Of a stretch of 64,000 nucleotides of DNA, positions 1 through 61,707 are shown in pieces. This DNA is from an uncultured delta proteobacterium. GTDB taxonomy: Bacteria > Desulfobacterota > BSN033 > UBA1163. The stretch is from assembly GCA_963827685.1 (NCBI GenBank), contig CAWHBU010000003.1, positions 832,001-896,000 of the forward strand, in the 5' to 3' direction. Made by a program: the position numbers and the translations under genes. How positions within the stretch are numbered: the stretch's first letter is position 1; each line of letters starts with the position of its first letter. The notes beneath the pieces were generated by a model. That model was not told where the DNA came from. It was given only the letters and a program-made list of their open reading frames with translations, and ran no database searches.

Positions 1-737
1 TGGCCTGCCATCCCATTGGCCAAAAGCAAAACCGTATCATTGGTGCTGGTCTCCCCATCAATCGTGATCCGGTTATACGATGCCTCAGCGGCCTTTTCCA
101 GCATTCGTTGAAGGAGGGGAGCCTTAATGCAGGCATCCGTGACAAGGAAGGAGAGCATCGTTGCCAAATTGGGACGAATCATTCCTGCCCCCTTCGCCAT
201 TCCGCACAACTTCACTTGCTTCCCTTTGATGCGACCCGTGGCCACCTCAACCTTCGGAAAGGTATCTGTGGTCATCATCGCCTCCACCGTGCTCATCCAA
301 CCCTCCGGAGAAAGCTGACCAATCAATTTAGGAATTCCTTCTTCAATCTTCTCCAATGGAAGCGGGCTTCCAATTACTCCTGTGGAGGAAGGGAAGACCA
401 GCCGTTCATCGATTTCCAACTGTTTTGCAACAAACGAAGAAACCCTTTTGGCATCTCTCAACCCTTGACTCCCTGTACAGGCGTTGGCATTACCGCTGTT
501 CACAATGATTGCCTGGCATAAACCTCTCTTGATACGCTCCATACCCAATTGCACGGGTGCTGCTTTTACGGCATTCGTTGTGAAAAGCCCGGCTACCTGA
601 GCGGGAACCTCTGAGTAGATCAAGCCCAAATCCCTTTTTCCATCTTTCTTGATCCCTGCTGAAATCCCCGAAAAAAGAAAACCTGAAACTTTAAATCGTG
701 AATCGTGATGCGTGACTCGTGATCCGTGATCTGACAT
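1..737 (-). CDS. argJ: Bifunctional ornithine acetyltransferase/N-acetylglutamate synthase (3' end runs off the window)
   Basis: Absent from the ORF track because it has no stop inside the window. Manual translation from ATG 737 gives MSDHGSRVTHHDSRFKVSGFLFSGISAGIKKDGKRDLGLIYSE...AGLFTTNAVKAAPV...AIIVNSGNANACTG, typical of ArgJ. AGGAG lies upstream. Confidence 0.93.
   Translation of the reverse strand, partial: MSDHGSRVTHHDSRFKVSGFLFSGISAGIKKDGKRDLGLIYSEVPAQVAGLFTTNAVKAAPVQLGMERIKRGLCQAIIVNSGNANACTGSQGLRDAKRVSSFVAKQLEIDERLVFPSSTGVIGSPLPLEKIEEGIPKLIGQLSPEGWMSTVEAMMTTDTFPKVEVATGRIKGKQVKLCGMAKGAGMIRPNLATMLSFLVTDACIKAPLLQRMLEKAAEASYNRITIDGETSTNDTVLLLANGMAG
696..733. repeat. TCGTGAN heptamer tandem array (solo CAC-type arm in mRNA sense) inside the argJ 5' end
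   Basis: tcgtgaa tcgtgat gcgtgac tcgtgat ccgtgat. Confidence 0.85.
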
Positions 738-811
738 CTTAAACTCTTCTCCTATTCCGCAATCCGAATTCCGGGCGAAGCATCCGTCTCGGATCAACCC
801 GCAATATTGGA

Positions 812-3484
812 TTAAGCCCTTGCCTCTTCCTTCAACAGGCAGCACCGCTTGTACTTCTTCCCACTCCCGCATGGACAGGGATCATTCCGTCCCACCTTCT
901 TTCCTTCCCGTCGAACGGTTACACCCTTTCCGCTTTCTGTTTTTCCACCTTCGCCGTGGGCTGCCTCCCCTCGGCTCAAGACAAAGTTCTGTTTCCGTTC
1001 CAGCTTTATCTCCTGAGCCTCCTTTTCCTTGGCAACCTGAATGGCAAAGAGTTTTTCAACCGTATCCCTTTTTATCCTGTCCAGCATCTCGAGAAACATT
1101 TGATAGGCTTCTTTTTGATATTCGATGAGGGGGTCCTTCTGACCATAACCTCTTAAACCGATCCCTTCCTTCAACTGATCAATGGCAAGAAGGTGGTCCT
1201 TCCAATGGAAATCAATGGATTGGAGCATAATCACCTTTTCCAGGTATCGAAGCATGGGTGCTCCAAATTCTTCCTCCTTCTTTTCGTAAACGTCCTTCGC
1301 ACTCTGCACAATCATTTCTTTTAATTGGTCTCTCCTGATCCCATTTTCTTCCATCGAGGGAACAGACCACTTGAAAGAAAATTGTTGAAAAAAGGCGTCC
1401 TGAAGCGCTTTCAGGTCCCACTCCTCGGGGTGTTCCTTTTCATCCGTATAGAAATCAACGAGCCCTTCGCCCTCCTCTTCAATCATCTCCATCACGGTGT
1501 CTTTCAGGTCTTCGCTGCCGAGAACCTCTCTCCGTTGGGAATAGATCACTTCTCTCTGTTTGTTCATGACATTGTCGTATTCCAACAGATGCTTCCGTAT
1601 TTCGAAATTGTGGGCCTCCACTTTCCTCTGGGCGCTCTCAATGGCCTTGGTAACCAGTCCATGTTCGATGGGCTGGTCCTCTTCAATCCCTAACCGATCC
1701 ATAATTTTAGAGATCCTCTCCGAGCCGAAAATCCTCAAGAGGTCATCCTCCAACGAGAGAAAGAATCGGGAGGAACCAGGATCGCCTTGTCTGCCAGATC
1801 TTCCTCTCAATTGATTATCAATGCGTCTCGCCTCATGCCGCTCGGTTCCCAATACATGGAGGCCTCCCACCTGAATGACTTTCTCCTTCTCCTTTTGAAC
1901 AATGCCTAAGGCCTTTCCGGTGGCCTCCTTCATCGTCTCTTCAGTGGCCTCCTCTTTCACGAGAGTCTTGGCTAAAAATTTTGGATTCCCTCCCAACAGG
2001 ATGTCTGTGCCTCTTCCAGCCATATTCGTAGAGATGGTCACGGCTCCTACCCTTCCCGCCTGAGCAATGATTTCAGCCTCTCTGTCATGATGTTTGGCGT
2101 TAAGGACATTATGCTGAACCCCCTGTTTCTTCAGGAGCTGACTCAATCTCTCAGACTTCTCAATGGAGATCGTGCCCACCAGAACCGGATGGCCGGATTG
2201 ATAGAGTTCTTTGATCTCACGGACGACGGCACGAAACTTCTCATCCTCAGTTTTATAAATGACATCCGCATAATTGGTGCGGATCAGGGGCATATTGGTG
2301 GGAATGACCACCACATCGAGATTATAAATTTTACGGAATTCCGCTGCTTCCGTGTCCGCGGTCCCCGTCATCCCGGCCAACTTTTTGTACATTCGAAAAT
2401 AATTTTGAAAGGTAACGGTGGCCAGTGTCTGATTTTCATTTTCGATCCGGACATTTTCTTTGGCTTCCACCGCCTGATGGAGACCATCGCTCCATCTCCT
2501 CCCGGGCATCAGCCTCCCGGTAAACTCATCGACAATGATCACCTCCCCCTCTTTGACCACATAGTCCACATCTCGTTTAAAAAGGGTATGGGCTTTCAAA
2601 CCCTGATTCACATGATGAAGCGTCTCAATATTTCTGGGATCGTACAGGTTTTCGACATGGATCAATTTCTCCACATGGACTACCCCCTCTTCTGTTAGGA
2701 AGGCGGTGTGGCTTTTCTCTTCTAACTGATAATCTGTCCCCTGCTTCAGAGAGGGGATGATGCGGTTGATCTTATAATATTTATCGGTGGATTCTTCTGC
2801 GGGGCCGGAGATAATGAGCGGGGTCCTGGCTTCATCGATCAGGATGCTATCCACCTCATCCACAATGCCATAGTTCAGATCCCGCTGGACATAATCTTCA
2901 AGGGTAAATTTCATATTGTCCCGGAGGTAGTCGAACCCGAATTCGTTATTCGTCCCGTAGGTGATATCACAACCATACGCCTCCTTACGCTCCCGGTCAT
3001 TGAGTTCGTGAACGATCACCCCTACGGAAAGGCCCAGGAACCGGTAGATCACGCCCATCCATTCCCTATCCCTTTTCGCCAGGTAGTCATTCACCGTGAC
3101 GATGTGGACCCCTTTCCCCTCAAGGGCATTCAGATAAGCGGACAAGGTGGACACCAGGGTCTTCCCTTCACCAGTTGCCATCTCAGCGATTTTGCCTCCG
3201 TGAAGAACAATTCCTCCAATCAACTGGACATCATAATGTCTTTCACCAAGGGTCCGTTTCGCTGTCTCACGCACGACGGCAAAGGCTTCAGGAAGGATCT
3301 CATCGATGGACTCCCCGCGCCCAACTCGCTCTTTAAATTCAGAAGTCTTGGCGCGGAGCTGGTCATCACTCAGCGGGCTGATTTCCGGCTCCCATTGGTT
3401 GATTTTGTCGACGAGGGGCTGAATCCTTCTTAATTCCCTCTCGTTCTTACTGCCCACGATCTTCTTGATCAGTGACCCAATCAT
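812..3484 (-). CDS. secA: Preprotein translocase ATPase SecA
   Basis: [36 protein letters not shown] and C-terminal [18 protein letters not shown]. Confidence 0.99.
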
Positions 3485-3525
3485 AAAATGCCCTTCTCCT
3501 ATTGGTTCTTCTTTAATTTCGGAAA

Positions 3526-3554
3526 ATTATATAACGGATTGCTCAGGGTTGCAA
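3526..3554 (-). promoter_or_regulatory. Sigma70-type promoter for secA
   Basis: Minus strand TTGCAA (3554-3549), 17 nt, TATAAT (3531-3526). Confidence 0.65.
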
Positions 3555-3615
3555 TCCTCAAAGATCAAAATCTCCAACAGAGAGCTTTGAAAAACTCCGA
3601 TCTGCCTCTTAAGCA

Positions 3616-3661
3616 GAGATTTCTGGACTTTTTCAGAAATCTCTAAACATAGCCCTTGACA
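3616..3661 (+). promoter_or_regulatory. Palindromic operator GAGATTTCTG-GACTTTTT-CAGAAATCTC 12 nt upstream of TTGACA
   Basis: Perfect 10-bp arms; a near-identical copy with the same spacing is at 33006-32961. Confidence 0.6.
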
Positions 3662-7501: not shown

Positions 7502-7580
7502 TTCGTGATTCGTGAATCGTGATTCGTGATTCGCAAAAGAATGTTACTCTACGAATCACCAATCACGAATCACGAATCAC
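7502..7580. repeat. Empty heptamer hairpin element: (TTCGTGA)n, loop, (CGAATCA)n
   Basis: Arms at 7502-7533 and 7552-7580; the fabH TGA stop lies inside a repeat unit. Confidence 0.9.
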
Positions 7581-8608
7581 CATCTAATGAGACTGCTTGC
7601 CCAGGTGAGGCCTCCCCCAAATGCGGTGAGGACGATCAAATCCCCCTTTTGGATCGATCCGTCCCGGACCGCCTCATCGAGGGCAATAGGAATCGTAGCG
7701 GAAGAGATATTGGCATATTTCTCAATGGTGAGATAGACTTTTTCAATAGGTACATTCAGTCGCTTGGCCACCTGCTGAAGCATGCGCAGATTGGCCTGGT
7801 GGGGAATGATCCACTTTATATCGGACATTTGAACACCGTTAAAGGCAGCCGCCTCTTCGGCGGCCTCCGCAAATCGCTTCACTGCCACCCGGACAGATTC
7901 ATTGGCCTTAATCATCCTCAGGGTATGAAGTTTCCTGTCCACACTTTCATAAGAGATGGGAGTCGTTTTCGACCCACCGCCAGGAAGAAGCAGGTTTTCA
8001 CCGTTCGCTCCATCTGTGTGGATATGGGTGGAAAGGACTTCGCTGATCTCCTTTCCTGACTCCCGCAGGGGTTGATTCTCCCCAGAATCATCAAAGGCTC
8101 GAAGCACCACCGCACCTGCCCCGTCCCCCCATAGAATACAACTCTCCCGGTCCGTCCAATCAAGACTCCGGCTCATGATTTCTACAGACGCAACCAGAGC
8201 CGTTTTGTAAGTACCCGCTTTCAGATACTGCTCGGCAACAGAAAGACCAAATACAAATCCACTGCAGGCGGCGGTCACATCGAAGGAGACCGCCTTTTCA
8301 GCCCCTAATTTCGCCTCTAACCAGTTGGCTCCGGAAGGACAAGCCGTATCGGGTGTCATGGTGGTCATGATGATAAGGTCTATCCCCTCGACCGAAATCC
8401 CTGCCATTTCCATGGCTCGTAGTGAAGCCTCTTTGGCAAGGTCCGAGGCATTGACATTCGGCCCCGCAATTCTTCGTTCCCTAATTCCGGTCCTTTTATA
8501 AATCCACTCGTCATTGGTGTCTAAGGTCTTTTCCAGATCAATATTGGTGAGAATTCTCTCCGGAAGAAATGAACCGGTCCCCAATATCCCAATCCTCTTA
8601 CTACCCAT
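7577..8608 (-). CDS. fabH: 3-oxoacyl-ACP synthase III
   Basis: RTGIRERR, AACSGF, GDGAGA, PHQAN and AFGGGLTW. Confidence 0.93.
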   Translation of the reverse strand: MGSKRIGILGTGSFLPERILTNIDLEKTLDTNDEWIYKRTGIRERRIAGPNVNASDLAKEASLRAMEMAGISVEGIDLIIMTTMTPDTACPSGANWLEAKLGAEKAVSFDVTAACSGFVFGLSVAEQYLKAGTYKTALVASVEIMSRSLDWTDRESCILWGDGAGAVVLRAFDDSGENQPLRESGKEISEVLSTHIHTDGANGENLLLPGGGSKTTPISYESVDRKLHTLRMIKANESVRVAVKRFAEAAEEAAAFNGVQMSDIKWIIPHQANLRMLQQVAKRLNVPIEKVYLTIEKYANISSATIPIALDEAVRDGSIQKGDLIVLTAFGGGLTWASSLIRW

Positions 8609-12934: not shown

Positions 12935-13030
12935 CGTGTCGGTGATTCGTGATTGGTGATTCGTCAACGAAGCATTTAAAATTCTTTTCATCCTTTTCTA
13001 CGAGTCACGAATCACGAGACACGTTTCACG
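12935..13030. repeat. Empty heptamer hairpin element between recN and argA
   Basis: Arms cgtgtcggtgattcgtgattggtgattcgt and acgagtcacgaatcacgagacacgtttcacg; the recN TGA lies in the outermost unit. Confidence 0.88.
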
Positions 13031-14705
13031 ATTTCCCGGCATTTTCAATCATCTCCTTGGCATGGGCTTTGGTTTTCTCGGTCACCTTCACTCCTCCCAA
13101 CATCCTGGCAATTTCATCCACGATCGACTCTTTATCCAATCGATCCACTAAAGTAATCGTCCGTCCTGCTTTCACCTCTTTCTTCACACTGTGGTGTTGG
13201 TCGGCAAAACAGGCAATCTGCGGAAGGTGAGTCACACAGATGACCTGATGATGCCGTGAAAGTTCTCTCAATTTCTTTCCGACCACCTCTGCCATCGCCC
13301 CTCCGATTCCAGCATCCACTTCATCAAAGATAAGAACCTGCCTTCCGCCTACTTTGGCCAGGATTCTTTTCATGGCCAACATAATTCGTGAGAGTTCACC
13401 TCCGGATGCAATCTTCGCCAGGGGTTTTACCTCCTCGCCGACATTGGGAGAAATGAGAAACTCTACCCGGTCCACACCTTTTAGAGAAAGAGGTAAAGGA
13501 TCAATATGGATTTCAAAAATGGTTTTTTTCATGCCCAAGGAATTCAATTCCCTTTCTACGGATTTTTTTAATTCTAATGCCACTTTCTTTCTCTCCTCCG
13601 AAAGTTTCTTTCCCAAATTATTCACTATTTGTCGCAGGGGATCCAAACGGCCTTCTAATTGAGAAAGTCTCTCTTCATCGGAGGTGAAGGATTTCAATGA
13701 CTCGTCAATCCTGTGTTTAAAGGAAAGGACCTCTTCAATCGTTGAACCATATTTTCTCTTCAGACGGTCAATCTCTTCTAACCTATTCTCAATCTCATCC
13801 AGCCTCACCGGGTTGATTTCCACCCTTCTTGAATAATCCCTCAGAGCAAGGGCGATGTCCTCCAATTGGATGAGGGTGGATTCAAGCGCCTTCAAGAGAT
13901 GTGAAAGAGAAGGATCAATGGCGGCCATCTCTCGCCCTTGATTGAGGATCCTCTGAATCTTTCCAATCGTCGAACCCTCCTCTGAGTAGAGCGTTTCTTC
14001 GGAGAGATGGGCAAAATCCATCAATTTCTTTGCGTGAGTGAGGATAGTGCGATCTTCCTTCAAAGACTCTTCTTCTCCGATTTGAATTCTGGAAGCCTCA
14101 ATCTCTTTCGACTGGAAGGCCATCAGTTCCCGCTCCTTGGCTCTTCTCTCCTTTTCTGTTCGAATCCTTTCGACCTCTTCAGACAAGGAGACAAATTCTT
14201 GGTATTGTTTCTGGAATTCCTCGCGAAGCCCAAGCAGTCCCCCGAATTCATCTAAAATATCAATGTGGGTCTCTACCCGCTGAAGAGATTGATGCTCATG
14301 TTGTCCATAGATGGTGAGAAGCCCTTCTCCAATCTCCGAAAGCACTCCAAGCGTGGCTAAATTTCCATTGACAAAAACCTTTCCTCTACCGGATCGGGAG
14401 ATCACGCGCCGAATGATGAGGGAATCCTCTTCTCCGGCACCCTGTAAATGCGGAGCCCTTTCTTTCATCCTTTCCTTGACCTCCTGGTTGCCCGAGATGT
14501 CGAAGAAAGCCTCCACGTTTGCTTCTTCTTCCGAACTTCGAATCCATTCCTCAGTCGTTTTATCCCCTAAGAGGAGGTGGACAGCATTGAGGATAATGGA
14601 TTTCCCTGCTCCCGTCTCGCCGGTGAGGATATTAAAGCCTTTTGAAAAGGATAGATTTAACTCATCGATAATGGCAAAATTCTTGATGCGAAGTTCGAGT
14701 AACAT
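13026..14705 (-). CDS. recN: DNA repair protein RecN
   Basis: TGETGAGKS, ASGGELSR, FDEVDAGIGG and VTHLPQ. Confidence 0.98.
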   Translation of the reverse strand: MLLELRIKNFAIIDELNLSFSKGFNILTGETGAGKSIILNAVHLLLGDKTTEEWIRSSEEEANVEAFFDISGNQEVKERMKERAPHLQGAGEEDSLIIRRVISRSGRGKVFVNGNLATLGVLSEIGEGLLTIYGQHEHQSLQRVETHIDILDEFGGLLGLREEFQKQYQEFVSLSEEVERIRTEKERRAKERELMAFQSKEIEASRIQIGEEESLKEDRTILTHAKKLMDFAHLSEETLYSEEGSTIGKIQRILNQGREMAAIDPSLSHLLKALESTLIQLEDIALALRDYSRRVEINPVRLDEIENRLEEIDRLKRKYGSTIEEVLSFKHRIDESLKSFTSDEERLSQLEGRLDPLRQIVNNLGKKLSEERKKVALELKKSVERELNSLGMKKTIFEIHIDPLPLSLKGVDRVEFLISPNVGEEVKPLAKIASGGELSRIMLAMKRILAKVGGRQVLIFDEVDAGIGGAMAEVVGKKLRELSRHHQVICVTHLPQIACFADQHHSVKKEVKAGRTITLVDRLDKESIVDEIARMLGGVKVTEKTKAHAKEMIENAGKS

Positions 14706-14717
14706 AACCCTAAATGA

Positions 14718-14825
14718 TGAGTTAAGAATTAAGAGTTATGAGTTATGAATTGCTGAATTATGAATAATAAAACTCTAAATTTTTAACTCTGAATTCTAAA
14801 CTCTAAACTCTTAACTCTAAACTCA
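14718..14825. repeat. GAGTTWA / TWAACTC heptamer inverted arms downstream of the four-helix gene
   Basis: gagttaagaattaagagttatgagttatgaatt ... aactctaaatttttaactctgaattctaaactctaaactcttaactctaaactc. Confidence 0.85.
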
Positions 14826-14829
14826 TTTT

Positions 14830-15186
14830 TCATTGTCCCTTAGATGTCTTGACGATTGAAGTCAATATTTTTCTCAATTCCTCTGACTCTTTCAAAAGGT
14901 AATCTAATTCGTTACTTGTTGTTAACTCAGAAACTTTTATCAATCTCAACCAGTAATTCGATTCTCTTGCCTCTTTTAATGCAACTCCCATTTTATATGT
15001 GAAGTCCTTTTTACTAAACCCTCCCGTTGCTTCCTCAACATTAGCTCCTACGGAAGTACCAGCTTCCAATAATTGACCTCCGATTTTATAACCAGCATGA
15101 TTTCTTGGTAAGTTTTGAATAAATTTAATAGTTCTTACTGCAAACTCGAAACTCCTTCCTTTGATATCTCTTTTATTCTTTTCCAT
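14830..15186 (-). CDS. Four-helix-bundle protein (23S rRNA IVS/Avd-like), subfamily A
   Basis: RSFEFAVR..QLLEAGTSVGANVEEA...KKDF..K..VALKEARES.YWL; visibly AT-rich; interrupts nadK-recN. Confidence 0.9.
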   Translation of the reverse strand: MEKNKRDIKGRSFEFAVRTIKFIQNLPRNHAGYKIGGQLLEAGTSVGANVEEATGGFSKKDFTYKMGVALKEARESNYWLRLIKVSELTTSNELDYLLKESEELRKILTSIVKTSKGQ

Positions 15187-15196
15187 TTTTTATCTC

Positions 15197-15229
15197 AATT
15201 CTAAACTCTAAACTCTTAACTCTTAATTC
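15197..15229. repeat. AACTCTW heptamer arm upstream of the four-helix gene
   Basis: aattcta aactcta aactctt aactctt aattc, directly after the nadK stop in mRNA sense. Confidence 0.85.
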
Positions 15230-15230
15230 G

Positions 15231-16119: not shown

Positions 16120-16193
16120 CCCGTGTCTCGTGCCCGCCGTCCGTGTCCGGGAAAAAATAATTTAAACGGGCACGGTTCACGGTCACGGACACG
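16120..16193. repeat. Empty CCGTGT/ACACGG 6-7-mer hairpin element
   Basis: ccgtgtctcgtgcccgccgtccgtgtcc ... acgggcacggttcacggtcacggacacg. Confidence 0.78.
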
Positions 16194-18687: not shown

Positions 18688-18798
18688 TTGACCGGTATGT
18701 GCCCCGCAAGCCCCGCCGTTTAGGGTGGGGTCGAGGGGCACAATATAAACGGAAACTACCTCACCGGGAAGCCGCGCCCTTTAGGGCGTGGAGCTTCA
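18688..18798 (+). mobile_element. Non-autonomous IS200/IS605-type palindromic element (PATE-like)
   Basis: TTGAC at the left end, subterminal hairpins AAGCCCCGCCGTTTAGGGTGGGG and AAGCCGCGCCCTTTAGGGCGTGG, ending in GCTTCA. Confidence 0.7.
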
Positions 18799-26385: not shown

Positions 26386-27528
26386 CTATTTTTGAATCAC
26401 CATCTTCTTCACTTTTCTTACGATCTGCTTCACATCCTCTTCCTTCATCACCGAATGGAGTGGAAGGGTTAATTCTCTTCCGCTCACCTCTTCTGTTCTC
26501 GGAAGATCCCCTTTTTTGTAACCGGACTGGTTGCGATAAAGGGAAAAAAGATGGACCGGCGGATAATGAACGCTTGTCTGAATTCCAAAATCCTTCAGCC
26601 TCTCCATCACCCTATTTCTATTGATTCGCGGTGCCACCAGAATCGGGAAGAGATGATAAGAAGGATTGCCCCTAAATTTTGAAAAGGGAATAGAGATTTC
26701 ATCAACCTCTTGAAGTCCCTCTCGATAAATCTCAACCAGCCTTTTTCTCTTCCTATTATTTCGATCCAATTTTTTCAACTGGACCAATCCCAGAGCGGAT
26801 TGAATTTCTGTTGTTCGATAGTTATAACCGACTTCCTGGATATCATAAGATGAGAGGTGACCGCGGTACTTATCCCACGAAAGCGCCTCCATCCCGTGAG
26901 ACCTCATCCTTCGAACCTTGTCCGCCCATGCTTTATTCCGAGTCACCACCATCCCACCTTCGCCGGTCACCAAATTCTTATTCGAAAAAAAACTGAAACA
27001 GCCTATATCTCCGACCAACCCGCACTTTTTCCCCCGATATTCTGCGCCAGGTGCATGAGCTGCGTCCTCAATTACATAAAGACCATGCCTCTTGGCTATT
27101 CCCAGGATGGCCTTCATCTCACAGGGATAGCCTCCGTAATGCATCACCATAATAGCCTTTGTCTTTTCAGTAATCTTTTTTTCAATTTCTTCAGGAGAAA
27201 TGTTCAGATCTTCTTCGCTTGCAATATCGGCAAAGACAGGTTTTGCCCCGGCATAAAGTACGGCATTGGCTGTAGCAATGAAGGTAAGAGAGGGAAGAAT
27301 CACCTCATCTCCTTCCTTTATACCAAGGCTTGCCAAGGCTAAATGGAGGGCAGCTGTTCCATTCGCAACAGCAATCGCATATCCTCCGCCAAGATATTCC
27401 GAAAAGGCTTTTTCAAACTTTTCAGTCACGGGGCCTGTAGAAAGCCACCTCGAGCGCAGGACCCTGAGAACCTCTTGTTCTTCTTCTTTCCCAAGATCAA
27501 TATCAGAAAGGGGGTAACGCCATTTCAT
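26386..27528 (-). CDS. DegT/DnrJ/EryC1/StrS sugar aminotransferase
   Basis: NGTAALH, EDAAHA, SFFSNKNLVTGEGG and GYNYR. Confidence 0.95.
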   Translation of the reverse strand: MKWRYPLSDIDLGKEEEQEVLRVLRSRWLSTGPVTEKFEKAFSEYLGGGYAIAVANGTAALHLALASLGIKEGDEVILPSLTFIATANAVLYAGAKPVFADIASEEDLNISPEEIEKKITEKTKAIMVMHYGGYPCEMKAILGIAKRHGLYVIEDAAHAPGAEYRGKKCGLVGDIGCFSFFSNKNLVTGEGGMVVTRNKAWADKVRRMRSHGMEALSWDKYRGHLSSYDIQEVGYNYRTTEIQSALGLVQLKKLDRNNRKRKRLVEIYREGLQEVDEISIPFSKFRGNPSYHLFPILVAPRINRNRVMERLKDFGIQTSVHYPPVHLFSLYRNQSGYKKGDLPRTEEVSGRELTLPLHSVMKEEDVKQIVRKVKKMVIQK

Positions 27529-27530
27529 CG

Positions 27531-27609
27531 TCGTGACTCGTGAATCGTGACTCGTGAATCGTGACTCGTGAATCGGATGAACGAATCACCAATCACCAGC
27601 ACGAATCAC
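27531..27609. repeat. Heptamer inverted arms downstream of the four-helix gene
   Basis: Perfect (TCGTGAC TCGTGAA)x3 at 27531-27572, then cgaatcaccaatcaccagcacgaatcac. Confidence 0.9.
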
Positions 27610-27619
27610 TTATTTCATA

Positions 27620-27976
27620 TCATCGTTTCAAAGTCCTAATAAGGCCGGTCAACATCTTTGCTACACGACCATATCTTTCTTTTAATGACGCATAATCTTG
27701 TTCCGAAAGGTAGCCCAGGTCTCTTGACAAAAGCAGCTGATAGCTTATTTCAGCGGATGATCCCCTCGCAATTCCTACAAACTGTCGATATTCCTTTGTA
27801 CCCAACCGAGATGCTCCTTCCACTATATTTACAGGTATAGAATATGCAGACCTTCGTATTTGTGAAGAAAGGCCAAATTTTTCTTCAGAAGGGAATTTTT
27901 CAGTTATTTTATAAATATCGATTGTAAGAGAGTGAGATAACTTGAACACATCCATATCTTGTGCACAATTTATCAT
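27620..27976 (-). CDS. Four-helix-bundle protein (23S rRNA IVS/Avd-like), subfamily B
   Basis: FPSEEKFGLSSQIRRSAYSIPVNIVEG...F..IARGS..E..YQL.L..DLGY; ATG 27976 follows AAAGGAGG. Confidence 0.92.
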   Translation of the reverse strand: MINCAQDMDVFKLSHSLTIDIYKITEKFPSEEKFGLSSQIRRSAYSIPVNIVEGASRLGTKEYRQFVGIARGSSAEISYQLLLSRDLGYLSEQDYASLKERYGRVAKMLTGLIRTLKR

Positions 27977-27991
27977 AAATTGCCTCCTTTG

Positions 27992-28021
27992 ACGAATCAC
28001 GAATCACGAGTCACCAACACG
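27992..28021. repeat. Heptamer arm upstream of the four-helix gene
   Basis: acgaatc acgaatc acgagtc accaacacg. Confidence 0.88.
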
Positions 28022-28023
28022 TA

Positions 28024-29004
28024 TTATAATGGATAACTCCCCACCTTAAATCGGGACAAATTCTTTCGATACCACTCAATGGTCTCTCTCAATCCCTCCT
28101 CAAGCGTATGTCGGGGTGCCCATTGAAAAAGTTTCTGAGCCAAATGGGTATCAGAAAGAAGTTGCATCACTTCACTCTTCTCAGGACGAATTCTACGATC
28201 CTCAACCTCAATCTCTCCTTGTCTCCCCATCAGACCAAGAATCTTCTTGACCAATTCTTCAATGGAGATGTCTATTCCACCTCCAATGTTGATCACTCTC
28301 CCCACCGCCCCTTCGCATTTCCCAACTTGAATAAAACCCCTCACCGTGTCTTTCACAAAAAGAAAATCCCGCCGAGGCTGAGTATTGCCCAAACGGATTT
28401 TTTTACCCTCAATGGCTTGTGAGATGATGGTGGGAATGATCGCCCGGAGGGATTGCCGAGGCCCAAACGTATTGAAGGGTCGAACCGTGGCAATGGGAAG
28501 ACCGAAGGAAAGATGGTAGCTCTCTGCCAACTTATCTGCTGCGATCTTACTGGCAGCATAGGGAGATTGAGCTTGGAGTGGATGTTTTTCATCAATGGGG
28601 ACATATTGGGCTGTCCCATAGACTTCACTCGTAGAGGTATGGATGAACCTTTCCACTGTGCCCTCTTCGAGACAGGCATTGAGGAGATGAGCCGTGCCAA
28701 GGACATTTGTCTGAATAAAATCGAATGGGTGAATATAAGAATAAGGAATAGCAATGAGGGCACCCAGATGAAAGACTTTATGACACTCCTTCACCACCTT
28801 TCTCACACCATCCGGATCCTTCAGATCCCCTGGAATTACTTCAATTTGATTTTGAATGTCTTTGGGCAACTCTTCCAAAAGGCCCCTTTCATCTCTCGAA
28901 TTGTATCGGACAAAGGCCCTGACATCTTCTCCCTGTCTGACCAACTCCTCAGTGAGATGGCTTCCGATAAATCCTCCCGCACCCGTTACTAGAATCTTTG
29001 CCAT
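28024..29004 (-). CDS. NAD-dependent nucleotide-sugar 4,6-dehydratase/epimerase
   Basis: TGAGGFIG, ALIAIPYSY, STSEVYG and YAASK. Confidence 0.93.
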   Translation of the reverse strand: MAKILVTGAGGFIGSHLTEELVRQGEDVRAFVRYNSRDERGLLEELPKDIQNQIEVIPGDLKDPDGVRKVVKECHKVFHLGALIAIPYSYIHPFDFIQTNVLGTAHLLNACLEEGTVERFIHTSTSEVYGTAQYVPIDEKHPLQAQSPYAASKIAADKLAESYHLSFGLPIATVRPFNTFGPRQSLRAIIPTIISQAIEGKKIRLGNTQPRRDFLFVKDTVRGFIQVGKCEGAVGRVINIGGGIDISIEELVKKILGLMGRQGEIEVEDRRIRPEKSEVMQLLSDTHLAQKLFQWAPRHTLEEGLRETIEWYRKNLSRFKVGSYPL

Positions 29005-29020: not shown

Positions 29021-29127
29021 TCGTGTTAGTGATTGGTGATTCGTGATTCGAAAAGATTTATAGTCCTTTAGCTATCATCTAGCTATCATCATCATTGACG
29101 ATTCACGAATCACGAGTCACGACTCAC
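29021..29127. repeat. Empty heptamer hairpin element
   Basis: tcgtgttagtgattggtgattcgtgattcg ... acgattcacgaatcacgagtcacgactcac; the loop contains TAGCTATCATC x2. Confidence 0.88.
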
Positions 29128-29132
29128 TGTTT

Positions 29133-29849
29133 TTATCCTTTTTCGTATAATAACTTTCCCTTCATTTCCTTAAATCTTTTCTGTGCTTCCTCATAGTCTT
29201 CATGCCTGCCAATGTCCAGCCAAAAATCGTTACTGGGATAACACACCACTTTGACCCTTTGTTTAATCAGTTTCTGGATCAATTCTGGAAAATCCAGATA
29301 TTTCTGCGATGGAATCCATTCTAAAACTTTTCTCTCAAAGGCATAGATCCCCATACTGACAGAGTAAGGGAGCGTTGGTTTTTCAATATATCGAGTCAGC
29401 TGATGGGTACGATCAAACTCCATGACTCCCAATTCCAATTGGACTTTCTTCTGACTCATGGCAATCGTGACCATCCCTCGATGTTGGCGATGGTATCTGA
29501 TCAACTTTTGATAATTGAGAGTGGTGAGGATGTCTCCGTTCATCATGAGAAAAGTCTCCGGAAGATTTGGGATGATTGAAAGAGGGCCAGCCGTTCCAAG
29601 GGGTCTCCCTTCCTTCGAATAACGAATGTCTACTCCGTATCGGCTCCCATTTCCAAAATAAGCTGAGAGGAGTGGTTCGGATTGTTGACTCACGGTGAAT
29701 ACCATCTCTTTAATCCGAAAATGGGCTAACTGCCTGACGATCACTTCAAGAATGGGCATTCCATCAATGGGCATTAAGGGTTTAGGGAATACGGTTGTAT
29801 AAGGGGCAAGCCTTGTCCCCTTCCCTCCAGCCAAGATAATCGCCTTCAT
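29133..29849 (-). CDS. Sugar-phosphate nucleotidyltransferase
   Basis: ILAGGKGTRL.P.T...PKPL, PLGTAG and WLDIG. Confidence 0.93.
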   Translation of the reverse strand: MKAIILAGGKGTRLAPYTTVFPKPLMPIDGMPILEVIVRQLAHFRIKEMVFTVSQQSEPLLSAYFGNGSRYGVDIRYSKEGRPLGTAGPLSIIPNLPETFLMMNGDILTTLNYQKLIRYHRQHRGMVTIAMSQKKVQLELGVMEFDRTHQLTRYIEKPTLPYSVSMGIYAFERKVLEWIPSQKYLDFPELIQKLIKQRVKVVCYPSNDFWLDIGRHEDYEEAQKRFKEMKGKLLYEKG

Positions 29850-29860
29850 GTCAGCTCCTT

Positions 29861-29966
29861 CTCGTGTTCGTGACGCGTGTCACGTGTCCGTTATCCGTGT
29901 TTCGTGTTGGTGATTCGTGATTGTGTTTCAAAATCTACGAATCACCAACACGATTCACCAATCACG
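29861..29966. repeat. Empty heptamer hairpin element with one extended arm
   Basis: ctcgtgttcgtgacgcgtgtcacgtgtccgttatccgtgtttcgtgttggtgattcgtgattg ... acgaatcaccaacacgattcaccaatcacg. Confidence 0.85.
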
Positions 29967-29974
29967 TTATTTCC

Positions 29975-31129
29975 TCAATAATCTGCCAAAAATCTCTCCA
30001 CAGAAGTCTCCATATCGAATAATCTTTTCAATTCCTCCCTTTTGGCTTCATCCCTTCCTTTTTCACCATGATCCTTATATTCAACTCTCCTCCTCATGGC
30101 TTCCTTAAGGGCCGTAATATTTTCTGGAGGAATCACCCAGGCCACTCCATACTGGCGACCCAGCATTCCCATATCCCCCACATCGGTGACGATCAGTTCT
30201 TTATTAAACCTCAATGCTTCTGAAAACACCAGAGGGATTGATTCAGACCTGGAAGGGATCACCACACCATCGGACGATTCATAAAGGGAAGCCAATGTCT
30301 CATCCGGTACATTTCCCATCCATGAAACGTGTTCCTCAAGTGCTTTCTCTTTAATAAAATTCTTTGCCCAATCCTCCATCCCACCTTTCCCGACGACCGT
30401 GAGATGGACACTCAATGCTTCTTTCTTCAGGTATGCCATGGATTGAAGCAGCAGGTCGATCCCTTTCACCCTCTCAATTCTTCCCACAAACAGAAAACGG
30501 TAAGGGCCCTCTGGTTTTTTAAGTCTCTGTTGTTTCTCGGGCTTATCCGGCCCCATTTTTTCAATGGTTCGTGTGGTGGCCAAAAAAAAACACTTTCTCT
30601 CAAACCGTTCTTCTATTCTCTTCGAAAGATCAAAACCATCCGCAAAAACACCTCTGGCTTCCTGAATGATTCTCCTCATCATCGGATAAAGGAAGGGATT
30701 CTTACCGTATCGATAAATATCTGAGCCGAGGGACCAAATGGAATAAGGAATCTTCGCTTGCCGGAAGGCCTGATTAGCAAAATAACCACTTGGAAGAACC
30801 CACAGGGCGAGGCATGCCTCCATCTTACTTTCTCTTATAAAGGTACACAATTCTCTCTTTCCGTTATGAAACAGACTTAAAATTTTGAACAAATCGAGCG
30901 GGCTAAAAGGGTTAAGCTGGACAAGGGGCTTCCTCGATTTGATCCAGGGGAACCATTTGACTTCTACATCTTTTAAAAACTCTTCCTTTTCTCCTGTGCG
31001 ATCCTGGGTAAAGACAAAGACCTGATGTCCCCTTTTTTTTAATCCCTTAATAAAATCGATAAGAAAAGGAGCCTGAGCGATGTCATCAGGGCGGGATGGA
31101 AAGGAAGAGGTAATGATGCAGATATTCAT
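29975..31129 (-). CDS. Glycosyltransferase family 4
   Basis: FVGRIERVKG, PSRSES.PLV..EA and TDVG. Confidence 0.9.
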   Translation of the reverse strand: MNICIITSSFPSRPDDIAQAPFLIDFIKGLKKRGHQVFVFTQDRTGEKEEFLKDVEVKWFPWIKSRKPLVQLNPFSPLDLFKILSLFHNGKRELCTFIRESKMEACLALWVLPSGYFANQAFRQAKIPYSIWSLGSDIYRYGKNPFLYPMMRRIIQEARGVFADGFDLSKRIEERFERKCFFLATTRTIEKMGPDKPEKQQRLKKPEGPYRFLFVGRIERVKGIDLLLQSMAYLKKEALSVHLTVVGKGGMEDWAKNFIKEKALEEHVSWMGNVPDETLASLYESSDGVVIPSRSESIPLVFSEALRFNKELIVTDVGDMGMLGRQYGVAWVIPPENITALKEAMRRRVEYKDHGEKGRDEAKREELKRLFDMETSVERFLADY

Positions 31130-31176
31130 GGATTCGTGTTAGTGATTCGTGTCAGTGATTCGTGATGATGGTTCGT
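31130..31176. repeat. Solo heptamer arm abutting the GT4 start codon
   Basis: gattcgtgttagtgattcgtgtcagtgattcgtga. Confidence 0.8.
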
Positions 31177-32144: not shown

Positions 32145-32268
32145 CGTATCCGTGTCCGTTTTCCGTTTCCGGATTCGCTATGAGCATAGCGCCTGGAATA
32201 GCCCCGGGAGAGCAGATTAGGTGCCTACGGTTTTATTTCAAGCGGACACGTCACACGCTCACGGACAC
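32145..32268. repeat. CCGTGT-family hairpin element in the leader of the glycosylation operon
   Basis: cgtatccgtgtccgttttccgtttccgg ... cggacacgtcacacgctcacggacac. Confidence 0.7.
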
Positions 32269-32809: not shown

Positions 32810-32917
32810 TCGTGTCCGTATTCGTTTTCCGTGTCCGTCTTGGTCATGGATAGAAAGATGAGTGTTCAATGGGCTTATTATCACGGACACGAAACACGCC
32901 TGCCTGACGGTAGGCAG
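32810..32917. repeat. CCGTGT-family hairpin with an inserted CCTGCCTGACGGTAGGCAG palindrome
   Basis: cgtgtccgtattcgttttccgtgtccg ... cacggacacgaaacacg, followed by the REP-like palindrome at 32899-32917. Confidence 0.7.
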
Positions 32918-34022: not shown

Positions 34023-34103
34023 AAAACGTGTCCGTCTTCCGTGTCGCGTGCCGAAAATAAAAAATAAATGCTAGCCGAAGATATGTGAATCTGCCCCTAT
34101 ATA

Positions 34104-36019: not shown

Positions 36020-36454
36020 AGTGATGGTGTTTAGTGATGGTGGTGCGTAAAATAAGGTTGAAGACCTGGAGGTTTTTAAATTGTCGCATTCATTAGTCCT
36101 GAATGTTTACAAATTGACAGAGAATTTTCCGAAGGAAGAAAGGTTCGGCCTCATTTCTCAGATGAGGCGGTCGGCCTATTCTATCCCTACGAATATTATT
36201 GAGGGAAGCAATCCTTTGGATACAAAAGATTATAGGCGTTTTGTCGGAATAGCGAAAGGTTCGGCAGGCGAAATCTCTTATCAGATACTGCTTGCAAAAG
36301 ACTTAGGCTATGTTTCGGAGGAAATTTATTCAGAGATGAGAGAAAAATATGAAATTGTGATTAAAATGCTCTCCAGTTTAGCCAAATCATTGGGTAAAAA
36401 GACTCAATAAATCACCTACTTACCTGCACCATCACTATACACTATCACTAACAC
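36020..36454 (+). mobile_element. Filled element: AGTGATGGTG arm, four-helix gene, complementary CACCATCACT arm
   Basis: Arm 36020-36043 pairs with 36426-36449 at 21/24 positions. Confidence 0.7.
36081..36410 (+). CDS. Four-helix-bundle protein, subfamily B (N-terminus possibly damaged)
   Basis: FPKEERFGLISQMRRSAYSIPTNIIEG...FVGIAKGSAGEISYQILLAKDLGY; homology extends upstream (KVEDLEVFK) to an in-frame TAA at 36048. Confidence 0.85.
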   Translation: MSHSLVLNVYKLTENFPKEERFGLISQMRRSAYSIPTNIIEGSNPLDTKDYRRFVGIAKGSAGEISYQILLAKDLGYVSEEIYSEMREKYEIVIKMLSSLAKSLGKKTQ

Positions 36455-36594: not shown

Positions 36595-36645
36595 TTAGTG
36601 AGTTTTGAGTTTAGGAATCACGAAACACGATTCACCAATCACGAA
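36595..36645. repeat. Chimeric arms in the porin leader: GAGTTT type followed by GAATCAC type
   Basis: ttagtgagttttgagtttag gaatcacgaaacacgattcaccaatcacgaa. Confidence 0.72.
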
Positions 36646-47733: not shown

Positions 47734-47740
47734 TCAAGCA

Positions 47741-47890
47741 ATTTCAAATGTCAAAGCTCAAGGTTCAAAAGACTTCCAAAGTTCAAAATGGAAAACGTAC
47801 AGCCTTAGGTCTGCTTGCTGAAAAGAAAAATGTTTTGCCATTTGTCATTTGAGCTTCATTTGACATTTGGATTTTGAAATTTGGATTTGA
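47741..47890. repeat. Empty TCAAA/TTTGA heptamer hairpin element
   Basis: atttcaaatgtcaaagctcaaggttcaaa ... catttgtcatttgagcttcatttgacatttggattttgaaatttggatttga. Confidence 0.78.
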
Positions 47891-53775: not shown

Positions 53776-53806
53776 GTAAGAACCATTCAGATCTGTTCGT
53801 AGAACC

Positions 53807-53888
53807 CTTGGTTCCTTGTGTTACTTGGGTTGCTTGGGTTCTTTGGGCTTCTTGCGTTAACCCAACAAACCCAATAAGCCCAATAAAC
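53807..53888. repeat. Empty 9-mer hairpin element (CTTGGGTTN / ACCCAAYAA)
   Basis: cttggttc cttgtgtta cttgggttg cttgggttc tttgggctt cttgcgtta, then acccaacaa acccaataa gcccaataa. Confidence 0.8.
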
Positions 53889-54025
53889 TACTGTGGCTCA
53901 TTCCAGGCATGTTTTAGTCGTTCACGATTGTGACCCCGACTCTGTCACAGAGACAAAGGTTGTCCTTGACAAAGAAACAAATGTGCTTTATTTATTTGCT
54001 TATAGTTAGTCTGTTCCGCTTCGGT

Positions 54026-56326: not shown

Positions 56327-56415
56327 GCGAATTTAGCGAATGGCAGCGAAATAATCGAACTTTAAGTAGTTCTTTTAGTTAATTCGCCAAATTCGGTTTG
56401 ATTCGTGTAATTCGC
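56327..56415. repeat. Empty 9-10-mer hairpin element (GCGAAT / ATTCGC)
   Basis: gcgaatttagcgaatggcagcgaaataatcgaa ... taattcgccaaattcggtttgattcgtgtaattcgc. Confidence 0.75.
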
Positions 56416-56437
56416 TCACTATGAAAGGAGAGGGCTA

Positions 56438-58311: not shown

Positions 58312-58339
58312 ATTTACCCCTTTCCTGCCAATTCGAACG

Positions 58340-58425
58340 CCCCTCTCACCCTAACTCCCCTTCATCCCCCTCTTGTAACCCCCCTCTATTCCCCCCTTAA
58401 ATTAAGGGGGGATGAAGGGGGGTTA
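58340..58425. repeat. REP-like palindrome CCCCCCTTAA-A-TTAAGGGGGG inside C-rich repeats
   Basis: taacccccc..ccccccttaaattaagggggg..ggggggtta. Confidence 0.65.
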
Positions 58426-58436
58426 TAGTGATTCGT

Positions 58437-59582: not shown

Positions 59583-59603
59583 GGGCCCACACTCCTCAGT
59601 GCT

Positions 59604-60344
59604 CTACATATTCGACCCGCCGGAGACATCCACCGTAGCTCCGGTCATGAAACTCGCTTCATCCGATGCCAGGAAAGCCACGACATTGGCAACTTCCTCG
59701 GGTTGGCCAATCCGACCAAGGGGAGTATGATCGAGAATTAATTTTTTGTATTTCTCAGCCATTTTGGCAATGGTGGGGGTTAAAATCAATCCTGGCACAA
59801 CCACGTTGACATTGATCTGATAACGGCCGAGTTCCCTGGCAATGCTCTTCGTCAGACCGATTATCCCTGCTTTCGCAGCACTGTAACTGATCGCGGCCAT
59901 TCCCCCACTTTTCCCGTAAATGGAAGAAATATTTATGATCTTGCCGTATCGATTCTCGATCATATGAGGAGCAACGGCTTGAATACAATTCAGGGTCCCT
60001 TTCAGGTGGACGCCCAATACGGCATCCCAATCCTCCTCTTTCACTTTCAGAAGCGTCGCCCCTCGGTCAAATCCTGCATTGTTGACTAAGATATCGATCC
60101 TTTTCCAGACACCCAATACCTGCTTTACCATGTTCTGGACCGATCTTTGATCTGATACATCCACGGCAACGAACATGGCTTTTCTACCCAGAGCCTCAAT
60201 CTCTCTCGTCGTTTGACCACCGGTATCAGGATTCAGCTCAGCAATGACCACATCCGCTCCTCCTTGGGCCACCTTCAATGCAATGCTCCGACCGATCCCC
60301 TGCCCTGCTCCGGTGACAATCGCCTTCTTGTCTTTCAGTCTCAT
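59604..60344 (-). CDS. SDR oxidoreductase (FabG-like)
   Basis: TGAGQGIG, NNAG and YSAAK. Confidence 0.9.
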   Translation of the reverse strand: MRLKDKKAIVTGAGQGIGRSIALKVAQGGADVVIAELNPDTGGQTTREIEALGRKAMFVAVDVSDQRSVQNMVKQVLGVWKRIDILVNNAGFDRGATLLKVKEEDWDAVLGVHLKGTLNCIQAVAPHMIENRYGKIINISSIYGKSGGMAAISYSAAKAGIIGLTKSIARELGRYQINVNVVVPGLILTPTIAKMAEKYKKLILDHTPLGRIGQPEEVANVVAFLASDEASFMTGATVDVSGGSNM

Positions 60345-60794
60345 CTCTCCACCTTAGGAGACTAAAATATCTCTAAGTTGTTAAACTTTCAAAATTTCAA
60401 AAATTCTAACAGATGGGCCTATGGTCGTCAATCTGTTTGTTATTCTTGCCCTCCCCCAGTTTTTTAGAAGCTCTGAGCTTTTTAGGAACATGTTACCTGG
60501 CCGAGCCCCTCAGAGAGGCTTCACAGGCCGCACCGCTCTGCGCCTAGGCACATGGATCTCAACGTTATAAGCAAGTCCCCCATGTTCCTCGGTCGGGTTA
60601 CAAAATACTCTCTAAGAAATCGGCCTTATGAAGCCATGAAGAGGGGGTTGGCCAGGGGGCATGTTCCATTTATTCCACCAAACCTGGAGGGGGTAAGGAA
60701 AAACTGGGGGTGGGCAAGGTTTGTTATTAAAAAGAAGTAGGTTGGAAAAAGAAAAGGTGGGTTTGGGAGGTCAAAGAGAGACCTCCCCTTTGGA

Positions 60795-61562
60795 TCAGTT
60801 ATCTTTCCAGGTTGGTTTTCGTTTATCCAAGAAGGCTTTAAGTCCCTCGATCGCATCATGAGTCTTCATTAAACGATCCAAATAGATTTTCTCAATAGCT
60901 TTGAGCCCCTTATCCATATCATCATTGAGTCCAGCGAGCATCGCCTCCTTCGTCAATTTCAAAACGATTCCGCTCAGTTTCCTAAACTTCTCAATAAATC
61001 CCCTCGCTTCTTCAGTGAGGGAAGCTTCGGGAACTATCTTATTGACCAATCCCAATGATAATGCCTCTTGAGCGCTGATGACATCGCCGGAGAGAATTAG
61101 TTCCAGCGCCTTCTTTCGTCCGATCATTCTCGGAAAGGCCAGAGCGGCAATAGGGGGAAAGACCCCAACCTGGATCTCAGGTTGTCCAAACTTTGCCTTC
61201 TCTGTGGCAATGACCATATCGCAATAGAGGGCCAGTTCGCATCCACCTCCAAGGGCTGAACCATTCACCACCGCAATGGATGGAACCTTCAGGGCGTCCA
61301 TCAAGCGGAACATTTTATGAAAAACTTCAATCATCTTATAAACCAAATCGCCGAGATGTTCTCCGACATCCACACCAGCAGAAAATGCCTTTCCCGCTGC
61401 CTGAATGACCAGGAGCTTCAGAGCCTTCTCTTTCAAGAGCTCAGCAAAGCAGGTATTGATCTCCTCCATCATCTCGATATTGAGGACATTAAGGGGAGGC
61501 CGGTTCAGTGTAAGAGTTGCCACTCCATCTTTCAGCTCTGTCTGAATATGTTTGAATGCCAT
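60795..61562 (-). CDS. dch: Cyclohexa-1,5-diene-1-carbonyl-CoA hydratase (Dch/BamR)
   Basis: Crotonase with FSAGVDVGEH, ALGGGCEL and GQPEIQVGVFPP; had-oah-dch synteny; ATG 61562 follows AGGAGG. Confidence 0.82.
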   Translation of the reverse strand: MAFKHIQTELKDGVATLTLNRPPLNVLNIEMMEEINTCFAELLKEKALKLLVIQAAGKAFSAGVDVGEHLGDLVYKMIEVFHKMFRLMDALKVPSIAVVNGSALGGGCELALYCDMVIATEKAKFGQPEIQVGVFPPIAALAFPRMIGRKKALELILSGDVISAQEALSLGLVNKIVPEASLTEEARGFIEKFRKLSGIVLKLTKEAMLAGLNDDMDKGLKAIEKIYLDRLMKTHDAIEGLKAFLDKRKPTWKDN

Positions 61563-61581
61563 TGGATTCACCTCCTATTAC

Positions 61582-61707
61582 CATGACTCGTGATTCGTGA
61601 ATGGTGATTCGCAAATGGGAGATTTGCCTTTGGCAAATCTCCGAAAAAGATACCCTTTGGGCGAAAGATAATTTTTAGCCCAAAGGGTATCTGCGTCACC
61701 AACCATG
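61582..61707. repeat. Heptamer element whose loop holds two perfect hairpins
   Basis: Arm tgactcgtgattcgtgaatggtgattcg; GGAGATTTGCC-ttt-GGCAAATCTCC at 61618-61642; AGATACCCTTTGGGC..GCCCAAAGGGTATCT at 61648-61692. Confidence 0.78.

Follow-up and report, generated by a model that had tools for sequence, protein, structure and literature searches.

Tandem-word hairpin elements, with and without a four-helix-bundle gene, at gene junctions of an uncultured delta proteobacterium: a candidate two-part mobile DNA system

What places short tandem repeats, arranged as inverted arms, at so many gene junctions of one bacterial genome, and why do some of these structures enclose a small four-helix-bundle gene? 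The question is raised by a stretch of 64,000 nucleotides (nt), called the window throughout, from an uncultured delta proteobacterium (GenBank assembly GCA_963827685.1, contig CAWHBU010000003.1, positions 832,001 to 896,000, or C3:832001-896000 in our contig numbering), whose gene content, with a porin and a benzoyl-CoA pathway, suggests an anaerobe. The assembly measures 5.2 Mb in 14 contigs and is 94.5% complete and 8% contaminated; in locus names the genome under study is G000, its relatives carry other G numbers and gene loci carry L numbers. Genome-wide counts use 5223 genes called by a purpose-made hexamer-based caller, with approximate start positions. We find that the elements form a real system, well in excess of what chance would give, and that they fit none of the known element classes tested. 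As a tentative reading, which we hold to fall a little short of an even chance, we propose a two-part DNA element system resembling that of REPINs (hairpin-forming doublets of repetitive extragenic palindromes, REPs) and RAYTs (REP-associated tyrosine transposases) and built on a pentamer of the Avd fold, in which the protein likely binds its cognate DNA words and would license copying of the arm-bounded unit into the gaps between stop and start codons.

A sequence-only reading of the window had listed tandem arrays at 21 coordinates, and arrays were found at all of them, making up 18 sites (Table 1). It had also described these arrays as inverted arms, which stands for 13 of the 18 sites: when each arm was locally aligned to the reverse-complemented sequence around it, these gave partner scores of 11-25, whereas the other 5 scored 6-9 and are solo or hybrid. 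The repeats are short as described, although their length ranges over 6-9 nt, mostly 7, and not 6-10; the supposed single family is in fact several word families unrelated to each other; and the placement at operon junctions fails at 32810, a divergent spacer. The three four-helix-bundle genes, at 14830, 27620 and 36081, match TIGR02436 with 94.8, 122.1 and 114.9 bits against a cut-off of 24, although the frame at 36081 is not intact, and the neighbours named as nadK, recN, an N-acetyltransferase (argA-like), fabH and a PmbA-like gene carry those identities. Both the 14830 and the 27620 cassettes have three arms, in the order arm, gene, arm, loop, inverted arm.

The arrays extend far beyond the window. 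There are 788 arrays of period 6-10 in the 4007 spacers of the genome (516 of period 7), compared with 51, 60 and 58 in three Markov resamplings of the spacers, and an inverted partner lies within 700 nt of 346 of the 821 intergenic arrays, compared with 5 of 821 in a one-sided random control. Arrays are present in 613 of the 3665 spacers of at least 40 nt (492/2681 co-directional, 73/457 convergent and 48/527 divergent), and word elements would thus explain a large share of intergenic sequence in such genomes if the proposal is true. Among the 514 array-bearing spacers of 40-400 nt we counted 316 hairpin elements (271 co-directional, 27 convergent, 18 divergent), which fall into 54 clusters, 18 of them with at least 4 members; the arms measure 30-37 nt in most families, about 43 nt in the 9-base family and 57-59 nt in the largest family. 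The stem begins no more than 10 nt from the upstream stop in 158 of the 271 co-directional elements (102 expected under uniform placement) and near that stop in 33 of the 116 roomy spacers (13.6 expected), with no enrichment near the start codon in the same 116 spacers (18 vs 26 expected). A search for inverted partners of 52 period 7-8 arrays deep inside called genes returned 1 doubtful case. No U-tails were seen after the stems, and a terminator role was rejected on this ground. Separately, at C4:788000-802000 of G000, arrays of 9-base and of 7-base words separate several successive genes of a phage-like run.

Genes of the TIGR02436 family are present in 38 of the 41 genomes searched. The 107 gene loci analysed comprise the 18 genes of G000, 9 recN loci and 80 of the 150 matches listed in relatives, picked as high-scoring and mostly distant from contig ends; 119 further matches stand outside that list. 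Every one of the 18 genes of G000 (13 intact and 5 broken, that at 36081 among the latter) is preceded, behind the upstream stop, by an array of its own word and followed by the inverted array; all 18 point the same way as the upstream gene and 17 of 18 as the downstream gene, and in relatives 79 of 89 are sense, 6 antisense (some doubtful) and 4 unclear. The predicted enrichment of repeats beside these genes was borne out, with inverted arms scoring at least 14 in 92 of the 107 loci against 16 of 348 small control genes, and 24 of the 107 loci show an extra same-direction arm with a hairpin. Comparing different sites, a word similarity above 0.4 is found for no pair of proteins below 50% identity, for 4% of 102 pairs at 50-60%, for 49% of 59 pairs at 60-70% and for 81% of 37 pairs at 70-80%; a protein and its closest counterpart from a different site have the word in common in 35 of 63 cases, where 1.6 would be expected. 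Protein subfamilies share words across host families in a quick version of the TIGR02436 tree, whose unresolved deep forks were left unused. Word and protein subfamily thus travel and drift together. Since the pairs share ancestry and linkage alone would be sufficient, the coupling is read as joint travel and drift and not as binding. A cognate gene (cosine at least 0.45) was found for 14 of the 18 larger empty families, 10 in G000 and 4 more in relatives. Two unrelated four-helix-bundle genes of G000 (C2:785143 and C3:689077) both have TGA at the conserved N-terminal Trp codon, and at L073 (G030:C109) such a gene lies between long same-direction arrays on both sides instead of the usual inverted layout.

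The junctions themselves record how the elements change. The suggestion that orthologous junctions would be polymorphic proved correct, as nadK-recN, recN-argA-like, legB, 29021 and 36020 all vary among relatives. At nadK-recN, read by eye in 24 same-family loci (one cut by a contig end), AAGAGTT words accompany one protein subfamily in 6 loci and are empty in 1; CGTGTC words accompany a second subfamily, whole or decayed, in 6 loci and are empty in 1; two further words occur empty in 1 and 3 loci, a REP-like palindrome in 2, a solo arm in 1 and a mixed relic in 1. The junction thus accommodates words of four families, proteins of two subfamilies or a REP-like palindrome, and exists without an element as a TAATG overlap in G022 and as 5 nt in G018; six loci of other families showed no word arrays there. 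At the legB-aminotransferase junction, word arms enclose members of two protein subfamilies and also a DUF559-like and a RAYT-like gene (labels that we assign from motifs), and the 36020 junction of G021 is occupied by another word together with another subfamily. In run X6, three contigs connect 27526 directly to 28026, with 2 letters fitting both sides, so that the whole 499 nt (27527-28025) is absent and an ATGA stop/start overlap is left. Joint calls with sides below 30 letters were set aside, being taken for same-word elements of other loci, and the joints 14707-15230, 27535-28024 and 29849-29978, whose intervening stretch is not known, were treated as hints only.

One unit is found at two places. 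A CGTGTC cassette lies at nadK-recN in G009 and at legB-aminotransferase in G002 and G010, with proteins 96-97% identical (nonsynonymous divergence, dN, 0.013-0.018; synonymous divergence, dS, 0.27-0.42), and the DNA of the copies matches along the whole unit, starting with the base that opens the arm behind the stop codon and ending with the arm base that stands last ahead of the start codon. Identity from arm tip to arm tip at unrelated junctions defines the unit and indicates that it has changed sites, either by fresh insertion or by a swap into arms already present. At nadK-recN, the second arm, loop and right arm of the empty locus L005 align with those of the filled locus L004 over 93 ungapped columns with a score of 63, where ten same-word elements of G000 score at most 36; this would be the pair of states expected on either side of a recombination between same-direction arms. 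The density of paired period 7-8 arrays per Mb is 2 in G022 (400 kb sampled, no gene found), 0 in G018 (268 kb, 2 genes), 82 in G023 (291 kb sampled, 9 genes) and 80 in G000 (600 kb, 18 genes). The moved 97%-identical unit, the empty-site alleles and this co-occurrence of arrays and genes at the level of genomes together support the view, already taken in the sequence-only reading, of filled and empty forms of one kind of mobile cassette. G026 carries two 89%-identical cassettes at different sites (L064 and L080), with matching ends.

The protein encoded at 27620 was modelled as four helices with a predicted local distance difference test (pLDDT) score of 95. Compared with solved structures the model gives Z 20.9 to Xcc0516 (root-mean-square deviation, rmsd, 1.0 over 112 residues), a TIGR02436 protein matched also by sequence with E 5.5e-23, and Z 16.9 to BT_0352, while unrelated bundles reach at most 13.2. 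The relation to Avd, the accessory protein of diversity-generating retroelements (DGRs), was confirmed at the level of fold (Z 15.2, rmsd 2.3, and Z 14.9 for PDB 8ub7 and 4dwl); at 10-11% identity it is detectable by fold alone, and a search of PDB sequences gave no match to Avd. A homopentamer is predicted from 40% identity to 2gsc, which has five chains. Across 59 sequences Ser46, Glu53 and Glu76 never vary and Gln39 and Asn50 hardly do, with a similar picture in all 107, and 94 of 106 proteins carry a net positive charge. To our knowledge this large and widespread family, with several solved structures, has no known function. In the Avd complex, all five subunits touch one stem-loop and flipped-out bases enter the crevices between subunits (10.1101/2023.10.23.563531), an arrangement that may serve, by analogy, as a model for one word per subunit. 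The likeness of PF05635 to Avd has been remarked on (PMC10053308), and the family appears in lists only in PMC10910872, PMC8491059 and PMC8700078.

Several known systems resemble parts of this one. One is the 23S rRNA intervening sequence (IVS) bearing an open reading frame (ORF) in Coxiella and Leptospira: PMC4990558 describes terminal inverted repeats around a gene of this family (S23p), tandem heptamers that precede the ORF, and, for Coxiella, cutting by RNase III in vitro, and states the origin of rRNA IVSs as open. The elements of G000 likewise have complementary terminal arms able to form a long stem; in contrast to the IVSs, each of the 18 genes has protein genes on both sides and none sits in the single 23S gene (on C7), and there are hundreds of gene-less copies, many word families and no strand bias in pairing. 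Given the same gene, terminal repeats and tandem heptamers, the Coxiella IVS is likely to represent one landing site of a wider element. REPIN-RAYT systems (PMC3337134 and 10.1101/2021.07.10.451892) share with ours extragenic inverted doublets of about 100 bp in hundreds of copies and several families per genome, a small gene flanked by its own repeat family, and long residence of the gene at one site, a trait that fits the nadK-recN subfamily and not the CGTGTC subfamily. They differ from it in that our partner is an all-helical TIGR02436 protein without HUH/Tyr transposase fold, the arms are tandem 6-9-base words instead of 14-bp palindromes, and the gene-bearing unit is found at new sites, which the same sources report RAYTs not to do. 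With Avd of DGRs the protein shares, beside the fold, small size and basic charge; in contrast, no reverse transcriptase (RT) is adjacent, the only one lying far off on C4. Non-autonomous inverted-repeat elements are familiar as miniature inverted-repeat transposable elements (MITEs) and as the foldback transposons of animals, whose arms consist of tandem units around a variable middle, and intergenic tandem heptamers are familiar as the short tandemly repeated repetitive (STRR) sequences of filamentous cyanobacteria. Unlike MITEs and other transposons with terminal inverted repeats, the filled forms here encode TIGR02436 and no DDE transposase, and an excess of target-site duplications was not seen. 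A literature search of incomplete coverage, which an earlier description may have escaped, found no link between the TIGR02436 family and tandem-word arms outside the Coxiella IVS.

The mechanism that we propose is as follows. The unit reaches from arm tip to arm tip, beginning at the upstream stop or shortly behind it and ending at the next ribosome-binding site or start. Gene-bearing copies face with the host transcript and have their own ribosome-binding site where inspected, and they would be expressed from host operons. The coupling of word and subfamily across sites and host families would reflect sequence-specific recognition, with about one word per subunit at four to five words per arm in most families. 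Three-arm forms and gene-less alleles with the same loop share one junction, where recombination between same-direction arms may remove, add or swap the gene. Gene-less copies would spread in trans at the DNA level and in either orientation, as REPINs do with a RAYT, and the catalyst may be the pentamer itself, with its conserved Gln, Ser, Asn, Glu and Glu, or a recruited host or HUH enzyme. If this is true, operons are entered, where a stop codon meets the next start, by a class of mobile DNA whose driver is a small ring-shaped protein that reads a word particular to its subfamily. Now that proteins can be paired with their cognate words and the precise ends of the elements and their unoccupied target sites are in hand, both binding and mobility are directly testable.

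The alternative that survives best, which we regard as rather unlikely, places the same parts on RNA: the ring binds the words in the transcript, RNase III cuts the stem out, a borrowed RT copies it back, and the protein is an Avd-like cofactor. The fold and positive charge of the protein, the sense orientation of all 18 family genes of G000, the anchoring of stems at stop codons, the Coxiella IVS and the presence of one group II intron-type RT in G000 all favour it, as does the predicted stability of the stems as RNA (median -31 kcal/mol); hairpins are predicted from this to form in transcripts, where they may be cut. The strand test rests on the premise that a stem selected in mRNA tolerates G-U and not A-C pairs on the transcribed strand. 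As a first control, short hairpins without U-tail gave 31:25 and had no power, so that tRNA stems (15:0) and terminator-like stems (18:5) were added. Filled cassettes at 92 loci showed no such excess, with 297:288 for all mismatches and 73:73 for isolated ones, which speaks against the conserved mRNA stem, processed like an IVS, that the sequence-only reading had put forward. For the empties a strict count of isolated mismatches gave 162:136 (p 0.15). The sense strand folds better in only 149 of 269 elements and the antisense strand in 120. In each of the nine families examined, which have an internal polarity, some empties run with transcription and others against it (33:9, 9:5, 7:9, 7:2, 8:6, 4:4, 5:3, 7:4 and 3:3), which might also result from later inversion between arms. 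When arms were swapped within families, swapped pairing was equal or better in 5 of 18 families and the loss in the others was small, in a test that favours own pairing since arms are delimited by it; a length-normalised version, in which own pairing exceeded the mean cross pairing in 107 of 264 elements, can be skewed by arm length and was superseded. The strand counts, the small loss on swapping and the two orientations together indicate that mainly the word is kept, on both strands. Furthermore, the sole RT, on C4, lies inside an intron-like element with no gene of the family nearby.

Several results weigh against the REPIN/RAYT-like reading that we prefer. A loose count of the empties does show a weak excess of G-U over A-C (638:560, p 0.026), and own arms pair somewhat better than swapped ones in 13 of the 18 families. 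Sense-facing genes and stop-anchored stems are more easily explained by a step at RNA or transcription, and favour both the RNA route and a regulator kept by the host. The coupling of word and protein, whose pairs are not independent, could follow from linked inheritance of one unit, and the move between G009 and G002/G010 could be a swap of cargo into existing arms. For the largest empty family, of 74 copies, the 94.5%-complete G000 assembly offers no cognate gene, no catalytic motif of known kind was found in the four-helix-bundle proteins, and Avd, the sole fold relative with a known ligand, binds RNA. Across six genomes the 14830 gene has dN/dS 0.066 at dS 1.31, where recN has 0.082 at 1.33, and behaves like a long-term resident, unlike a simple parasite. 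Among 271 elements with fuzzy old ends, target-site duplications, including a duplicated ribosome-binding site or start, showed no excess over shuffled pairs, and the link between genes and arrays at genome level covers four genomes only, three of them partly sampled.

In a bolder form of the proposal, the S23p/Avd-fold pentamer would itself both recognise the words and transfer the strands of a class of mobile DNA not described so far, with chemistry at the Gln-Ser-Asn-Glu-Glu set, each subfamily reading its own word at one per subunit, and precise insertion between stop and start that leaves both genes unharmed; ORF-bearing rRNA IVSs would then be stray landings and Avd a domesticated descendant. 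We consider this doubtful. To a similar degree we doubt that the arrays are a regulatory module kept by the host, tuning mRNA stability, pausing or translational coupling, with a protein that regulates its own words and with spread solely by ordinary recombination and slippage. The strong purifying selection on the 14830 gene and its recN-like divergence at one site are what such a module predicts; arms fill the entire spacer at coupled genes, three-arm forms permit alternative pairing over the gene's own start, and arrays are commoner in co-directional than in divergent spacers. However, the same junction tolerates any of several words, unrelated palindromes or nothing, the stems have neither U-tails nor strand bias, 5 of the 18 genes are broken, and ordinary recombination leaves the first entry into a stop/start overlap unexplained.

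It is improbable that the arms are merely the ends used by an unrelated HUH transposase or nuclease, with the four-helix-bundle gene as cargo. The window had been read as free of transposase and RT; outside it, G000 has, beside the one RT, 25 HUH matches (21 IS200-like and 4 RAYT-like), and at the legB junction of two relatives RAYT-like and DUF559-like genes sit inside word arms. The flanks of two RAYT-like, two DUF559 and four GIY-YIG genes inspected in G000 are, on the other hand, not word arms, several being non-periodic hairpins of their own; 18 IS200-like copies end at non-array boundaries, each word tracks a four-helix-bundle subfamily, and the gene is under purifying selection. A scan for other cargo between inverted partners 130-1500 nt apart gave 153 rows, 21 of them over four-helix-bundle genes, and the remainder, judged by eye, consists mostly of host genes between two same-word elements. 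One GxxExxY gene with word-like flanks counts for the cargo view. Finally, neutral slippage repeats or assembly artefacts, to which the strain-variable unit number (a 7-base deletion at 29029 in run X3) and the 8% contamination might point, are refuted by the roughly fourteen-fold excess of arrays over controls, their inverted pairing, the recurrence of the same elements in independent genomes and runs, and the moved CGTGTC cassette, and have next to no probability left.

Table 1. Elements and four-helix-bundle genes of the window (window positions; sites paired or unpaired by arm alignment)
Site	Coordinates	Strand	Arms	Feature
696	694..731		unpaired	Solo arm without partner, CGTGAT-type heptamers, downstream of secA
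7502	7502..7582		paired	Empty element, CGTGATT words, fabH/pmbA-like junction; arms 7505-7537 and 7548-7580; -48 kcal/mol as RNA
12935	12935..13031		paired	Empty element, CGTGATT words, recN/argA-like junction; other words or nothing in relatives
14718/15197	14711..14832	-	paired	AAGAGTT words on the downstream side of the gene: second left arm, then loop and right arm; same as gene-less allele of relative locus L005
	14830..15186	-		Four-helix-bundle gene, 118 aa, intact, between nadK and recN, purifying selection
14718/15197	15196..15229	-	paired	First left arm, AAGAGTT words, begins directly after nadK stop
16120	16120..16193		paired	Empty element, CGTGTC hexamer words, upstream of nadK
27531/27992	27531..27609	-	paired	Second left arm (27581-27609), short loop, right arm (27531-27575), CGTGATT words; ends at aminotransferase start
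	27620..27976	-		Four-helix-bundle gene, 118 aa from ATG, intact; predicted fold like Xcc0516 and Avd
27531/27992	27989..28019	-	paired	First left arm, CGTGATT words, directly after legB-like stop
29021	29021..29128		paired	Empty element, CGTGATT words; other word family or other four-helix-bundle cassette in relatives
29861	29861..29966		paired	Empty element, mixed CGTGTC/CGTGATT words; related contigs skip the element
31130	31130..31164		unpaired	Solo arm
32145	32145..32268		paired	Empty CGTGTC element with smaller hairpins nested in the loop
32810	32810..32898		paired	Empty CGTGTC element, divergent spacer, adjoins a short REP-like palindrome
34027	34027..34055	+	unpaired	Solo left arm, CGTGTC words, directly after stop codon
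36020/36411	36020..36042	+	paired	Left arm, GTGATG hexamer words, directly after upstream stop
	36051..36410	+		Four-helix-bundle frame (36081) lacking an in-frame start ahead of the conserved N-terminal motif; either a pseudogene or an error of assembly
36020/36411	36411..36454	+	paired	Right arm of the 36081 cassette; in relative L058 the junction holds another word and another protein subfamily
36595	36595..36645		unpaired	Weak hybrid of two word families, upstream of porin gene
47741	47739..47889		paired	Empty, long-armed member of the largest family, AAATTCC-type words
53807	53806..53890		paired	Empty element, 9-base TTGGGTT-type words
56327	56327..56420		paired	Degenerate empty element
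61582	61582..61618		unpaired	Solo arm, CGTGATT words, beside two unrelated perfect hairpins

Other mobile and hairpin-flanked genes were met in the course of this work. The RT match on C4 belongs to an element at 392300-394400 with an RT frame of 425 aa and a typical 3' end, which we take to be of the group II intron type. A short IS200-like element occurs in 18 equal-scoring copies on 7 contigs with fixed non-array ends, some in or beside word arrays. At C1:21554-21898 a single GxxExxY gene, a cargo of nuclease fold in a similar position, lies between two ribosomal-protein genes, presumably rpsK and rpsD, and is followed by a short repeat that resembles the words. Nested in word arms at the legB junctions of G012 (L117:700-1545) and G009 (L113) are a RAYT-like gene accompanied by GTAG palindromes and a DUF559-like gene accompanied by C-rich hairpins, and the two arms of L113 come from different word families. 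DUF559, GIY-YIG and RAYT-like genes with their own hairpin flanks directly after the stop are found at C7:124532, C3:786163, C5:121252 and C6:428228 of G000, and gene-less C-rich hairpin versions occupy recN junctions in relatives. These nuclease and RAYT-like genes with hairpins of their own suggest that several parallel hairpin-cassette systems may exist. In the window, two perfect non-periodic hairpins stand side by side at 61627-61700 and adjoin the 61582 solo arm, and two further repeats fall outside the word families, a C-rich one at 58352-58398 and a multi-copy non-periodic one at 18688-18798, which has many loose ends in four runs.

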